Below are positions 43,043 through 46,661 of a stretch of DNA of 64,000 nucleotides, piece after piece. The notes under the pieces were generated by a model, which did not search any database, was not told the origin of the DNA, and saw nothing but the letters and a program-made list of their open reading frames with translations. Made by a program: the position numbers and the translations under genes. How positions within the stretch are numbered: position 1 is the stretch's first letter; each line of letters starts with the position of its first letter. Origin of the DNA: Acidimicrobiia bacterium (GTDB taxonomy: Bacteria > Actinomycetota > Acidimicrobiia > Spongiisociales > UBA11373); NCBI GenBank assembly GCA_040878325.1, contig JBBDMM010000002.1:1-64000 (forward strand), written 5' to 3'.

Positions 43043-43444
43043 CTAGATCCCAAAGACTCCGGTCTCCGTAACTTCCAGCTCCATTCCCGTCTTGAGTCGA
43101 TCGAACAGCGCCCGGTCGACAACGACGACCGGGCAGGTGATCCCGTAGAGCTCCTCGGCGACGATGGCGCCGACCAGCACGATGTCGTCGGGGATGGACA
43201 GGACGATCGCCGCCGGAGAGGTGCCGAGGCGGATCGCCTCGGCCAGAACGCTGGAGGACGACGATGATCCCCGGCCTCCGGGCATCACCAGCACCCGCCC
43301 GGTGACCACCTCGCTGAGCTGGGGATGGCGGGCGTCGATGATTGCTCCCGTACCCGGGTCGAGGCCTCCCCACATCGAAAGCGGCTCGTCGAGCACGAGC
43401 GCAAGGCCCGAGGCGACGCCAGGAAGCAGGCTGCGGGTGCTCAT
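43043..43444 (-). CDS. Aconitase X swivel subunit (DUF126)
   Basis: [28 protein letters not shown] overlap. Confidence 0.9.
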   Translation of the reverse strand: MSTRSLLPGVASGLALVLDEPLSMWGGLDPGTGAIIDARHPQLSEVVTGRVLVMPGGRGSSSSSSVLAEAIRLGTSPAAIVLSIPDDIVLVGAIVAEELYGITCPVVVVDRALFDRLKTGMELEVTETGVFGI

Positions 43445-44691
43445 GCCCACACCGACTCGTCGCGTTTGATCGTCCCGGCAGCCGCGGACGCCACGCACTC
43501 CTCGAGGCTGCCGAATGCCACTTCGACTCCGAGGTTTCCCGGCGCGTAGTAGGCCCATTTGCCCGAATTGGTCATGACCACACCGGTGGCGTCGCGAAGG
43601 ATCGGCGTGATGTAGGTACAAGTGTCGGTGACGATCTCCACGCCGGCATCCCGCAAGGGGGTCACCAGGCCAGCGGCCGCCGCTTGGGCGAGAACGTCAC
43701 GGCTGGTGTTCACGAAGAAGTCGACAACGAACCGTTCCCCGACGACGAGCGGGGCGAGCCGCTCGAACTCGGCGAGCGAGAAGTGCGGAGTGCCGACACT
43801 CACCGCGGCGAGCGGTCCTTCGGTGGCGGTCGACAGATCGTTTCGCGCCTCCCGCAGCATTGCCAGGTCGATGTCGACCTCGAGTTTCGGGGTTCCACCA
43901 CCGAGGGCGGCATCGAGCGTGGGAGCTTCGGGCGTGCGACCGACGGCATGGAACATCGCCACTCCGCCCGATGAGGCGGCGGCGGCTCCGAGAGCCTTCA
44001 ACCCGTCCTCGGGGGCGTCGGAGGGGAGGCCGACGATCGCGGGCAGCAGGCTCCCCGTCATTCGTCCCACCAGGTGGCCGAGGATCGGATAGAGCAATTC
44101 GCTGTCGCAGACGCGTTCGGGAAGCGCCGCGATGCGGAAGACCGCCTCCGCCCTGCGGTGCTCGTCGAGGTGGAGACCCGCTTCCGGCACCCGGCCGGTG
44201 ATGGCGGCGCAGATGTCGATGAAGTCGCCATACCGATCGGTGCGCGCCCCGAGCACCGAGTTGGCGAAGACGATCGCGTTCGACTCCGCCCAAGCGATGT
44301 GCTCGCCCTGCGCCGGACGGGTCGACTGATAGGGGGCGCAGGTGAAGGTCGGTCTGCCCCCCATCGATACATAGACCCGCATCAGGCGCCGACCGCGTTC
44401 GGCGAGCAACCCGTCCCCTCTGAACAATGCGGGGTGCAGCAGGTCCAGCGAGGAAACGTTGAGCGTGGTGGGAACCACTACCCGGCCGCCGCTCGCCGAG
44501 AGTCGTTCGGCGAAGTCGAGCCCTGCCTCGCCGTGATACAGGCACGAGTCGATGTGGGCACCGGTGACGTCGATCATCCGGGAGGCCCTCGCAGCCTCCG
44601 CCATCCTGACCAGGATCCGCATGGCGAGAGCGACCGCGTCGCCCCGCTCCCCGCCGAGCATGGCTTGGTCGGTATCCGTCAGCCTGAGCAT
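43441..44691 (-). CDS. Aconitase X catalytic subunit (DUF521)
   Basis: AHID, TCAPY, WAESNA..FANSVLGART, GTPH, DTC, TNSGK. Confidence 0.92.
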   Translation of the reverse strand: MLRLTDTDQAMLGGERGDAVALAMRILVRMAEAARASRMIDVTGAHIDSCLYHGEAGLDFAERLSASGGRVVVPTTLNVSSLDLLHPALFRGDGLLAERGRRLMRVYVSMGGRPTFTCAPYQSTRPAQGEHIAWAESNAIVFANSVLGARTDRYGDFIDICAAITGRVPEAGLHLDEHRRAEAVFRIAALPERVCDSELLYPILGHLVGRMTGSLLPAIVGLPSDAPEDGLKALGAAAASSGGVAMFHAVGRTPEAPTLDAALGGGTPKLEVDIDLAMLREARNDLSTATEGPLAAVSVGTPHFSLAEFERLAPLVVGERFVVDFFVNTSRDVLAQAAAAGLVTPLRDAGVEIVTDTCTYITPILRDATGVVMTNSGKWAYYAPGNLGVEVAFGSLEECVASAAAGTIKRDESVWA

Positions 44692-44774: not shown

Positions 44775-45251
44775 GTGAGTGACTACGAGATCCAGCGGAT
44801 CGAGGCCGCCGAGGCGCGGCCGCTGCGGCGGGCGCTGCTCCATCCCACCCAGCCGCCCGGCGCGGTCGACTACGAGGCCGACCATCAGCCGGTGGCACTC
44901 CATGTCGGCGCCTTCAAGGATGGGGTGCTGGTCGGAATCGCATCGGTACATCCCCAGCCGATGCCGGGATCTCACAGCACCGGGGCGGCATGGCGTGTCC
45001 GTGACATTGCCGTCGAACACGGCCACCGGGGCCGTGGAGTGGGGGCGTGGATGCTCGAGCGGTGCCTGGAGCACGTGTCCACCAACTCAGGGGTGATCAT
45101 CTGGTGCACTGCCCGAGTTGGGGCCTACGGCTTCTTCGAGCGCATGGGCTTCGCCCGATCCGGCCCTCCGATCGAGGACCCGGCCGAGGGCCCGCAATAC
45201 ACCCTCTATGCCGAGGTTCCGCCGCTCGAGCGGTCCTGGAAGATCGGCTGA
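44775..45251 (+). CDS. GNAT family N-acetyltransferase
   Basis: HRGRGVG, WCTAR, FFERMGF. Confidence 0.88.
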   Translation: MSDYEIQRIEAAEARPLRRALLHPTQPPGAVDYEADHQPVALHVGAFKDGVLVGIASVHPQPMPGSHSTGAAWRVRDIAVEHGHRGRGVGAWMLERCLEHVSTNSGVIIWCTARVGAYGFFERMGFARSGPPIEDPAEGPQYTLYAEVPPLERSWKIG

Positions 45252-45296: not shown

Positions 45297-45482
45297 TCAG
45301 CTCTTGGTGGGCTGCGGAATGCGGGCGGGCCGGGGTACCGGCTGGAAATGGGTCCAGCAGAGTTCGTTCTTGTTGTACGACGAGATCCGCGTGGTGCAGC
45401 CCTGGTGGATGCACACCCGCTGTCCCCCGTACGTCTTGCGGGGTCGGCCCCCAGTCAACTTCGAGATCGAGTGTTGGCTCAC
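45297..45482 (-). CDS. Small basic Cys/His protein (C-x4-C...C-x2-H)
   Basis: RVCIHQGCTTRISSYNKNELCWTH. Confidence 0.65.
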   Translation of the reverse strand: MSQHSISKLTGGRPRKTYGGQRVCIHQGCTTRISSYNKNELCWTHFQPVPRPARIPQPTKS

Positions 45483-45684
45483 GCCCTAACGATGCCATGA
45501 ACCAGCAAGTTGTTCAAAGTGGCCGGAGGCGCAATGAGCAAAGGGGTGAACGGGTCCGAAGGGGTCTGGGGACTCTTGCGGAAGGCGGAGGGCGGAAGGC
45601 CGCCCGGACGACATGGGCCGGCCGGCAGCAGAAAGCCCTCTCTTATGGCACAATTCCGCCACGGAGAAAGGAGGTGGTCCACAC

Positions 45685-45729
45685 GTGATTGACAGTATTC
45701 GCAGGACTCCGGAGGTGGTCGGGCGCTGA
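45685..45729 (+). CDS. Putative 14-aa peptide MIDSIRRTPEVVGR within a structured RNA
   Basis: Preceded by AGAAAGGAGGTGGTCCA and TGGCACAAT extended -10-like box; followed by hairpins. Confidence 0.5.
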   Translation: MIDSIRRTPEVVGR

Positions 45730-45821
45730 GCGGCCACGGGGTGGCCGCTCCCGGGTGCTGAACCCGGACGTGGCGACTCCAACCTGGACCACCGGAATCG
45801 GGAGGCCCGTGAGCTGGTCCC

Positions 45822-46661
45822 TCACGGCGGCGATGACGCCGAAGTGCCTCCCGGTTCTTCATTTTCAGGGGCGTGGCGGATTCTCGCCCCCAGGTACAGG
45901 GGCACCCCCTGCCACAGCACCATCAGCGCGCCGGCGACCACCAACACCCACCCGGCGATCGGTCGCCAGCGGTCGAAATCACTCTCGGCCCTTCCCACCG
46001 TGCCGCGGGCCTCGTCCACCCCCACCCGGTATTCCTCGAAGAGGACCGCCGCCTCGGCGAACTCCGCCTGCATCTGACCGAGGCTCGCCTCGATCTGGTC
46101 GAGGCTTTCCCGTACCGCAACCAGGTTCGTGCGCCCCTCATCGAGGAGCCGTCCCTGCTCACGCAGGCTCTCGGGAACCTCCGCCAGTGAGAGGTCCATC
46201 TGCCGGAACGCCTCACCCAGCGTCATCTCGGAGTCGAAGCCGATCCCGAATATCGCCAGTGCCTCGATGGTGCGGTCGAGCACGTCGGCGACCTCGATCA
46301 GACCCGGAAACGACCCCTGTAGCGCGTCGAAGCTGTCCGCAAGGTCTACGCCGATGACTCCGGACATGTCGGTGAGCGCCGTCTCGAAGTCGATCAGGCC
46401 GTTGCGGAAGTCGTCCATCCCCTCATCGACGGAAGCAAGGCCTTCGTCGGCGGCGGAAAGAATCGACTGGGCCGTATCGATGCCTTCGGCGGTGGACTCG
46501 AGGACGTCGGCGACGATGGCGGTGCCGTCACCAACATCGTCGGTCAGGCCCAGCACCACGAAGCCGAGCACGACCACCGCGACCCCGACAACGATGCCGG
46601 CGATGCCGAGCGCGGTGAACCCCCACCCGAGATAGCGGCCCCCCCATTCGTTGTCAGGCAT
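45822..46661 (-). CDS. Membrane-anchored coiled-coil protein
   Basis: TM at both ends, acidic heptad-like middle. Confidence 0.75.
   Translation of the reverse strand: MPDNEWGGRYLGWGFTALGIAGIVVGVAVVVLGFVVLGLTDDVGDGTAIVADVLESTAEGIDTAQSILSAADEGLASVDEGMDDFRNGLIDFETALTDMSGVIGVDLADSFDALQGSFPGLIEVADVLDRTIEALAIFGIGFDSEMTLGEAFRQMDLSLAEVPESLREQGRLLDEGRTNLVAVRESLDQIEASLGQMQAEFAEAAVLFEEYRVGVDEARGTVGRAESDFDRWRPIAGWVLVVAGALMVLWQGVPLYLGARIRHAPENEEPGGTSASSPP

Follow-up and report, generated by a model that had tools for sequence, protein, structure and literature searches.

The 64,000-nucleotide (nt) stretch of DNA analysed here, hereafter the window, comprises positions 1 to 64,000 (forward strand) of contig JBBDMM010000002.1 of an Acidimicrobiia bacterium (GenBank assembly GCA_040878325.1; Actinomycetota, Spongiisociales, UBA11373). 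On its plus strand, at about 45661–45866, lies a real RNA gene of about 200 nt that is free-standing and single-copy. We consider it likely that this gene, a homologue of the small RNA (sRNA) Ms_IGR-5 (Rfam RF02471), specifies a very small structured mRNA acting at the ribosome, and not a base-pairing sRNA. The transcript would present a 17-nt complement to the 3′ tail of 16S ribosomal RNA (rRNA) just upstream of a 14-codon open reading frame (ORF), and its conserved product would be ribosome engagement and RNA remodelling, not the peptide. The elements of the primary sequence on which this reading draws are as follows (SD, Shine–Dalgarno; P2 is a helix described below).

45646–45654, plus strand: extended −10-like box TGGCACAAT, of the form TG-n-CACAAT; coordinates confirmed in the window sequence
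45665–45681, plus strand: SD1, AGAAAGGAGGTGGTCCA, 17-nt complement to the 16S tail with one G:U pair, read against the genome's own 16S 3′ end
45685 (GTG) to 45727–45729 (TGA), plus strand: micro-ORF of GTG, 13 sense codons and TGA, encoding VIDSIRRTPEVVGR; from the window sequence and frame statistics
45711–45720, plus strand: second SD-like copy, GGAGGTGGTC, inside the micro-ORF
45711–45727, plus strand: SD2, GGAGGUGGUC, with the rest of the P2 5′ strand (45714–45727); codons E-V-V-G-R
45785–45793, plus strand: anti-SD-like sequence TGGACCACC; from the window sequence
45858–45866, plus strand: U-rich tail UUCAUUUUC, a possible 3′ end, antisense to the last codons of the minus-strand ORF 45822–46661

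The box, the 17-mer, the ORF, the second copy and the anti-SD-like sequence, together with hairpins at 45728–45750, 45751–45767 and 45807–45827, had been listed in an initial annotation of the window, and all of them lie where it had placed them. The interval it had drawn around them (45646 to 45827) ends too early, as covarying structure runs to 45857 and the U-rich tail to about 45866. At the 5′ side, the +1 nucleotide is predicted at A45661, 7 nt 3′ of the −10-like box. In the 58 copies of the element from genomes of the same order (see below) a box of the form CAnnAT or TAnnnT stands at a constant distance from the RNA start, with A2 and T6 conserved in at least 85%, and Actinomycetales copies carry TTGnCn-N17-TAnnnT upstream. 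The call of a −10 box, made in the initial annotation, rests on this positional conservation, since a consensus scan gave no promoter match.

Of 61 genomes of the same order, 58 matched a 271-nt query (45600–45870), mostly with one copy each (56 of 59 without the unpublished genomes G040 and G051). Fifty-eight copies were retrieved, those of G040 and G051 being excluded; the element is present in every one of them, with a conserved core from 45664 to about 45859, and the alignments consist of invariant blocks between stems that vary by compensation. A pattern of two SD-like copies yielded at least 120 further loci in named Actinomycetota genomes. The matches listed come from Mycobacterium, Mycolicibacterium, Rhodococcus, Tsukamurella, Micromonospora, Amycolatopsis, Nonomuraea, Actinomadura, Nocardiopsis, Kineococcus, Blastococcus, Nocardioides and Frankiaceae, and also from metagenome-assembled genomes (MAGs) of Acidimicrobiia, Ilumatobacteraceae, Microthrix and Solirubrobacteraceae. 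Across the phylum the element is mostly single-copy. Three genomes (G020, G054, G080) have two copies each; nearly all others have one.

The genes next to the element vary by clade (aminotransferase IV, THAP4/nitrobindin-like, GcvT-like, MBL hydrolase, ABC, PALP, amylase), the largest neighbour cluster comprising 25 of the approximately 120 non-order loci and 17 of the 58 order loci, and no conserved synteny or regulated neighbour was found across clades. Because the neighbours differ between clades, the RNA is taken to be free-standing and not a leader. This agrees with the initial annotation, which had held that the element has no co-oriented gene downstream (the next ORF, 45822–46661, is on the minus strand and convergent) and is no ordinary attenuator (no conserved gene lies downstream). 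At 21 non-order loci a co-oriented 390-amino-acid (aa) ORF without Pfam match lies downstream (the L064 type); it may be spurious.

The single 16S gene detected in the genome ends in ...GGCTGGATCACCTCCTTTCT, and the 17-mer at 45665–45681 pairs with all 17 terminal nucleotides, one of the pairs being G:U, which confirms for this genome the complementarity that the initial annotation had proposed. By chance, a 17-mer with at most three mismatches is expected 0.09 times per window (at least one match in 9 of 100 shuffles), and the real site has one mismatch; furthermore, the 14-mer AAAGGAGGTGRTCC, with at most one mismatch allowed, occurs in the 2.2-Mb genome only in the 16S gene and at this locus. 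The 17-nt match is not a chance one. A complementarity run of 15–20 nt is found in all 158 distinct copies of the order-level and pattern-scan sets (17 nt in 103 of them). Two copies, L046 and L056 (genomes G045 and G056), have the perfect 16S complement GGTGATCC instead of GGTGGTCC, at the cost of a mismatch with internal partners.

The micro-ORF was located in all 178 loci, which represent these 158 distinct sequences, and frame controls were run on the latter. The start codon lies 5–13 nt past GGAGG, mostly 8–12 nt across the family, and is TTG in 73 loci, ATG in 50, GTG in 35, CTG in 9, ATC in 8, ATA in 2 and ATT in 1, the script having passed over an aligned ATA (L021, L027) or CTG (L102, L121, L161) for a canonical codon further on. 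The ORF has 12 codons in 88 loci, 13 in 15, 14 in 65 and 15 in 4, and it ends in TAG (122), TGA (30) or TAA (26). A canonical start stands in frame 0 in 133 of the 158 copies, against 1 and 6 in the other two frames; when near-cognate starts are admitted the numbers are 157 against 6 and 28. Between the start region and the second SD-like copy, stop codons make up 1 of 1317 triplets in frame 0, and this one lies upstream of the ATG in L101, compared with 100 of 1219 and 140 of 1255 in the other frames. The stop codon follows the GAG codon by exactly 15 nt in 158 of 158 copies. In the window, the second GGAGG precedes the stop by 11 nt and the first precedes the start by 10 nt, so that the two spacings are nearly equal.

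The peptide behaves differently from the frame. A C-terminal pattern, [RWG]-T-x-E-V-[AV]-x-[RS], recurs, and it is encoded by GGAC, GAGGUGG and the P2 strand; each x changes in step with its RNA partner and crosses amino-acid classes (one such position has P, L, S, R, C, H, G or E), and the N-terminal 4–6 residues are free. Judged from these statistics, the micro-ORF is selected for translatability, and the peptide sequence is not conserved beyond what the RNA imposes. Translation may be very weak, because some clades use near-cognate starts only. Recoding of the TGA as selenocysteine, which the hairpin after the stop might bring to mind, was rejected, as relatives use TAG, TAA and TGA interchangeably at this position.

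Both the RNAalifold modelling of the structure and a covariance model (R1) drew on 47 of the 58 order-level copies; omitted were those that diverge most or are rich in inserts (L042, L045, L046, L049, L051–L054, L056–L058). RNAalifold gave 45 pairs, 21 of them with compensatory changes. In the final structure the register of the 5′ hairpin was revised by eye and helix P3 was added, resulting in 54 pairs distributed as follows.

45662–45666 with 45707–45711, plus strand: P1a; 3 of 5 pairs compensatory (pair 5/53: GC 28, AU 14, CG 2)
45667–45677, plus strand: SD1 bulge in P1, 11 nt, AAAGGAGGUGG, which displays SD1
45678–45680 with 45704–45706, plus strand: P1b; the P1 hairpin overall spans 45662–45711
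around 45685, plus strand: A/U-rich apical loop of P1, which holds GUG 45685 in the structure model
45714–45727 with 45772–45775, 45783–45787 and 45789–45793, plus strand: P2; 98.7–100% paired
45772–45793, plus strand: P2 3′ strand, the anti-SD-like strand, composed of GGCG (45772–45775), the conserved internal loop ACUCCAA (45776–45782), CCUGG (45783–45787), a bulged A (45788) and CCACC (45789–45793)
45728–45737 with 45741–45750, plus strand: P3 hairpin, inside P2; 5 of 8 pairs compensatory, 86% of cells paired
45751–45755 with 45763–45767, plus strand: P4 hairpin, inside P2, of variable length, keeps its pairing (judged by eye, uncounted)
45795–45806 with 45846–45857, plus strand: P5; 11 of 12 pairs compensatory
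45807–45813 with 45821–45827, plus strand: P6, with the invariant loop CUGGUCC (45814–45820); 6 of 7 pairs compensatory
45828–45832 with 45837–45841, plus strand: P7; 2 of 5 pairs compensatory
45842–45845, plus strand: junction AAGU of the P5/P6/P7 three-way 3′ domain (45795–45857)

In the 47 sequences 95.6% of the cells of this 54-pair structure are paired, compared with 33–44% when the partners are slid by 1–3 columns. Compensatory changes on both sides occur in 29 of the 54 pairs, and the observed values were matched in 0 of 500 shuffles. Among 31 Actinomycetales copies 93.1% of the cells are paired and 37 of 54 pairs are compensatory, in an alignment that was fitted to the model and is hence biased toward the structure. 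Along the P2 5′ strand lie the second SD-like copy, the final codons of the ORF and the first stop-codon base; 2 of the 14 P2 pairs show compensatory changes, at 65/166 (GC 40, AU 7) and 66/165, and 7 further pairs vary on one side. In Actinomycetales the same helix reads GGUGGCUGnn with nnCAGYCACC, and the GUCC loop of P6 is kept phylum-wide. Covariation supports the P1 and P2 fold. For P1, RNAalifold had proposed a competing register, GG.GGUCC with GGACYCY. Beyond P5, the U-rich tail is limited to the window's genus, and most of the remaining order-level copies end in a conserved CGCG[CU]C tail, which could pair with GGGCGC just before the stop codon, a candidate extra helix.

Two checks proposed in the initial annotation came out as follows: the search for homologues and covariation (58 of 61 same-order genomes, 29 of 54 pairs) and the comparison of peptide with nucleotide conservation, in which the RNA-dictated positions and the frame are kept and the peptide is not. 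A ribosome-binding RNA with a micro-ORF, as suggested there, fits the comparative data, in which the 16S complement, start, frame and stop are conserved phylum-wide.

The plus strand of the window RNA folds at −104.4 kcal/mol (z −3.62 versus shuffles) and the minus strand at −100.8 kcal/mol (z −4.71). Since the minus strand folds about as well, fold energy cannot decide the strand. A minus-strand RNA is disfavoured by the upstream promoter box, the ORF and G:U pairs that occur within conserved helices (15 GU at 15/53, 22 at 18/51 and 28 UG at 62/169, among others).

Ms_IGR-5, a kinship absent from the initial annotation, was reportedly first described in Mycobacterium smegmatis by Li et al. 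in 2013, in the journal RNA. In the window no Rfam family reached its gathering score, which leaves none of the known universal RNAs and riboswitches; RF02471, whose cut-off of 45 bits the window copy does not reach, gave no match in 45300–46000 or at the locus in a whole-genome scan with E values up to 10. As the window itself has no Rfam match, its homology to RF02471 rests on bridging by relatives. RF02471 matches 13 of the 14 named copies scanned against Rfam over their full length with 56–179 bits, the Solirubrobacteraceae copy being unmatched, and gives significant, full-length matches below the cut-off in G037 (36.8 bits) and G050 (27.3 bits), at the same sites as the search with window DNA. 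Conversely, R1, built only from order-level copies, matches 50 of 50 named loci over their full length, among them Mycobacterium (70.7 bits) and Micromonospora (76.1 bits). In a phylum sample of 151 genomes, evenly drawn and free of motif selection, R1 has matches in 64 and RF02471 in 43 (19 over the cut-off), with 71 in the union and 7 found by RF02471 only; with unpublished genomes set aside, R1 has 58 of 145 and RF02471 has 39 of 147. The coordinates of the two models coincide, for example, in G127, G169, G196, G141, G155, G037 and G050. The best R1 scores among named copies belong to MAGs labelled Acidimicrobiia or Actinomycetota, and it is for this reason that we call the window's form the Acidimicrobiia type. 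Judged from these model matches, the window RNA is a divergent, Acidimicrobiia-type homologue of Ms_IGR-5 and a new member of a known sRNA family.

The two forms share a promoter, an ACAC-like 5′ start, the block (A/G)GGAGGUGGUCC, an NUG start 8–12 nt later, a short ORF ending in ...GAG GUG GYN NNN NGC stop, a second SD-like copy paired to a ...CACC strand, a GCGA(A/C)UYC internal loop and a long GC-rich 3′ helix that encloses a GUCC-loop hairpin. They differ in that the window ORF has 14 codons, compared with 12 in most Actinomycetales copies, in the anti-SD strand (GGACCACC in the window, CAGYCACC in Actinomycetales) and in the P7 hairpin, which is an extra of the window type. In the Rfam structure of RF02471 the first SD block is paired locally, and the long-range helix GAGGUGGCUG:CAGYCACC is absent though it covaries here. 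The RF02471 model misses copies of the Acidimicrobiia and Solirubrobacteraceae types.

Ms_IGR-5 is described as a validated, uncharacterised, NAD-capped (nicotinamide adenine dinucleotide) sRNA of M. smegmatis, encoded between MSMEG_5794 and MSMEG_5795 and starting with +1A (bioRxiv 10.1101/2021.12.14.472595). It was seen again as ncMSMEG15794c (PMC10454040), was validated by RNA sequencing in S. lividans (PMC8079986, Table 2), forms a transcription unit in S. avermitilis (PMC8780764) and carries ribosome footprints in M. abscessus and M. smegmatis (PMC4974804). We found no publication linking Ms_IGR-5 to an extended SD or a short ORF (sORF), in a search that did not include the original description or the bioRxiv supplements, which may bear on the point. 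In a ribosome profiling study of M. tuberculosis (PMC9094748), the main text contains neither the flanking genes nor sRNAs, and three peptide motifs were unmatched in three supplements, which may omit peptide sequences.

The initial annotation had proposed that the anti-SD-like strand can pair with either SD copy. The minimum free energy fold of the window RNA pairs SD1 (45673–45681) with UGGACCACC (45785–45793), P1 and P2 not being formed; forcing the SD2:anti-SD pairing yields a predicted −103.7 instead of −104.4 kcal/mol, a difference of 0.7. Among the 52 order-level copies that could be parsed the SD1:anti-SD pairing is favoured in 46, with a median difference of −4.5 kcal/mol, compared with 0 of 16 parsed Actinomycetales copies, where the median is +6.65. 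This comparison omits 6 of the 58 order-level and 15 of the 31 Actinomycetales sequences, in which the motifs could not be located, and the anti-SD is probably mislocated in L031, L041 and L048. SD1 pairing is competitive in the window's lineage only, because the anti-SD GGACCACC fits SD1 perfectly and the Actinomycetales CAGYCACC fits the second copy only. As the SD1 alternative involves only invariant bases, covariation neither supports nor refutes it. Thus, of the proposed switch, the SD2 pairing covaries and the SD1 pairing is predicted to be about equal in energy in the window's lineage, and a family-wide switch is not borne out; a switch is plausible in the window's lineage, as modelled here.

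The closest analogy that we found is to the rre genes of alpha-proteobacteria. The rreB mRNA of Bradyrhizobiaceae, 165 nt long, combines a 17-nt SD with a 14-aa sORF that starts with GTG (Hahn et al. 2016, RNA Biol, PMC5711450). Its binding to 30S subunits is strong and its translation weak, its stability is start-codon-dependent, and it has no known function; other alpha-proteobacteria have analogues (rreR and others), and Actinobacteria are not mentioned in the paper (PMC5711450). Like the window RNA, rreB and rreR are described there as small free-standing transcripts with a 16–17-nt 16S complement near the 5′ end, a GTG start and an sORF of 14–18 codons; in both cases the complement is partly single-stranded with the rest in a hairpin, and the genomic context is not conserved across orders. 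Taking at least 16 nt of complementarity to an organism's own 16S 3′ end, placed upstream of an sORF, as a criterion for extended-SD small mRNAs of the rre kind, the window RNA has 17 nt with one G:U. In rreB and rreR, as described, the complement reaches the GTG's first base, whereas in the window 3 nt separate its end (45681) from the GTG (45685). The described rre peptides are conserved within clades, unlike the peptide of the window family, and the second in-ORF SD copy, the anti-SD strand and the large covarying 3′ domain are features of the window RNA that the available description of rre does not mention. Binding to 30S is reported there as demonstrated for rreB and is predicted for the window RNA, and the phyla differ. 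The likeness is best seen as analogy, not homology, and with its complement ending short of the GTG the window RNA is placed outside the rre family. The best Rfam match in 45300–46000, 15.6 bits compared with a cut-off of 75, is to CC2171 (RF01867), a Caulobacter sRNA; it is limited to the 16S-complement block and one hairpin, with 105 model positions skipped. The CC2171 consensus starts with GAAAGGAGGUGAUCCA, a 16-nt complement to the 16S tail, ends in a GC-rich hairpin and is filed as a plain sRNA. CC2171 is probably the Caulobacter counterpart of the rre genes.

Combining these data, we propose the following course of events. The gene would be transcribed from its own promoter, as conservation suggests and as has been published for homologues. 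The nascent RNA would fold P1, exposing AAAGGAGGUGG in the bulge and the start codon in the A/U-rich loop, and the 3′ half of the ORF, the second SD-like copy and the stop would be locked in P2 with the anti-SD-like strand, followed by the three-way junction; this fold is borne out by the covariation. A 30S subunit may then capture the 5′ end, its 16S tail forming up to 17 base pairs there, and initiate at GUG, UUG, AUG or a near-cognate codon; the conserved start, frame and stop point to capture and initiation, as does the analogy with rreB. The ribosome would read 12–15 mostly rare codons and would have to unwind P2 to do so. At the stop, it would find the second SD-like copy spaced from the stop as SD1 is from the start. 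In the window's lineage only, the freed GGACCACC may pair anew with SD1, in a fold predicted to be equally stable, and so close the site. One possible cellular role is the titration or sensing of free 30S subunits or of intact 16S tails.

The main competitor of a ribosome-engaging mRNA is a regulatory RNA with no coding function at all, be it a base-pairing sRNA or one that binds a protein or ribonucleoprotein (RNP), in which the SD and anti-SD blocks would be structural or target-binding and the ORF would be unused. In its favour, Ms_IGR-5 is filed as an sRNA (RF02471), the RNA has an elaborate fold with strong covariation, conservation of the peptide goes no further than RNA constraints demand, some clades have near-cognate starts only, and the ORF of L053 is broken. 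We nevertheless hold this explanation to be improbable: without translation it is hard to explain the frame statistics (starts 133 versus 1 and 6; stops 1 versus 100 and 140), the fixed position of the stop with all three stop codons in use, or changes of ORF length in whole codons. Moreover, the 17-nt match to 16S exceeds what any internal structural partner would need, and L046 and L056 keep the perfect complement GGTGATCC despite the internal mismatch.

That the 12–15-residue peptide is itself the functional product, with the RNA structure only tuning its synthesis, would make the locus a small-protein gene. The conserved ORF and the recurring [RWG]-T-x-E-V-[AV]-x-[RS] pattern speak for it, as does the conservation of the RreB and RreR peptides within clades reported in PMC5711450. 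We regard it as very unlikely, as every conserved residue comes from nucleotides constrained either by pairing or by the SD-like block (GGAC, GAGGUGG, P2 strand), the residues marked x follow their RNA partners and change amino-acid class, and 4–6 N-terminal residues vary freely. Hardly any weight falls on a translationally switched type I toxin-like unit, which the initial annotation had entertained, or on a ribosome-dependent attenuator of a neighbour. Strong SD, short ORF and alternative pairings do resemble leader or toxin control regions; the peptide, however, is short (12–15 residues), mostly polar or charged and unconserved and lacks a hydrophobic helix, the gene occurs in single copy throughout the phylum instead of patchily, and an attenuator is at odds with neighbours that differ between clades and with the convergent orientation of the next gene in the window.

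Several observations count against a translated, ribosome-engaging member of the Ms_IGR-5 family. The sequences share phylogeny, so that the counts overstate their independence; only the window's genome had its 16S tail read, the others being assumed to share it; and the 120 pattern-scan loci were selected for both SD-like copies, so that conservation of the two motifs among them is by construction (start, frame and stop were not selected). The ORF of L053 (G043:C1) ends after 3 codons owing to a 2-nt insertion, and only CTG, ATC, ATA or ATT stands at the start in some clades (20 of 178 loci by the script, plus L021, L027, L102, L121 and L161 by alignment). The simple consensus scan found 0 promoter-like and 0 terminator-like sites, RF02471 has no match at the window locus, and the SD1:anti-SD alternative, favoured in none of the 16 parsed Actinomycetales copies, has no covariation behind it, both strands being invariant. 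The mycobacterial footprints have their equivalent on the classical non-coding RNAs 6C and F6, and the authors caution that RNPs co-sediment (PMC4974804). As to expression, a 181-nt metatranscriptome contig from a soil study covers 45688–45860, one of 212 nt from an ice study covers 45668–45868, and for a 535-nt contig from a third run, whose kind is unknown, similarity starts at 45661. Parts of 45400–45660 and 45870–46000 lack RNA-contig cover, from which nothing is concluded, and run X3 matched nothing on the stretch, which does not speak for absence. Contigs spanning nearly the predicted RNA are a weak hint of expression; they come from relatives at 95–99% identity and show neither ends nor strand, and RNA libraries can hold DNA.

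A broader and more speculative proposal, which we think doubtful, concerns the Ms_IGR-5 family in its entirety, Acidimicrobiia and Thermoleophilia through Mycobacterium and Micromonospora: it would be a ribosome-engaging 'one-shot' micro-mRNA whose 5′ end clamps the free and intact 16S 3′ tail of a 30S subunit, whose translation unzips an internal helix mimicking SD:anti-SD pairing and thereby resets or inactivates the RNA, and by which the cell senses or buffers the pool of initiation-competent 30S subunits. If true, the family and the alpha-proteobacterial rre genes, likewise of unknown function, would be convergent counterparts. Few small RNAs are conserved across Actinomycetota, mycobacteria and streptomycetes included; Ms_IGR-5 is one of them and has been detected repeatedly. 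The present analysis widens its range to lineages that the Rfam model missed, with the Acidimicrobiia- and Solirubrobacteraceae-type copies, and provides a new, covariation-backed structure model comprising the long-range helix that joins the in-ORF SD-like copy to the anti-SD-like strand. It also offers a concrete hypothesis, that of a translated micro-mRNA with a 15–20-nt grip on the 16S tail in parallel to rreB.

The RNA gene is flanked by the following genes.

44775–45251, plus strand: GNAT acetyltransferase gene
45297–45482, minus strand: 61-aa Cys-rich ORF (MSQHSISKLTGGRPRKTYGGQRVCIHQGCTTRISSYNKNELCWTH...), oriented divergently from the RNA gene and showing a C-x4-C ... C-x2-H pattern
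45822–46661, minus strand: 279-aa ORF, convergent, its 3′ end overlapping the RNA gene antisense by about 45 nt

The 61-aa ORF has no match in Pfam or NCBIfam. The 279-aa ORF has no family over the cut-off and only weak sub-threshold matches (Mce4_CUP1, DUF3040, LegC2/C7); from hydrophobic stretches judged by eye, it probably encodes a membrane protein. A longer protein gene in place of the RNA was considered on either strand and rejected: the ORFs across the region (213, 127, 222 and 60 aa) are apparent high-GC artefacts, and the conservation pattern is RNA-like. Farther upstream, the window carries an aconitase X gene (AcnX, PF04412) at 43441–44691 on the minus strand, and the adjoining ORF at 43043–43621, also on the minus strand, resembles, by eye, the small AcnX subunit.

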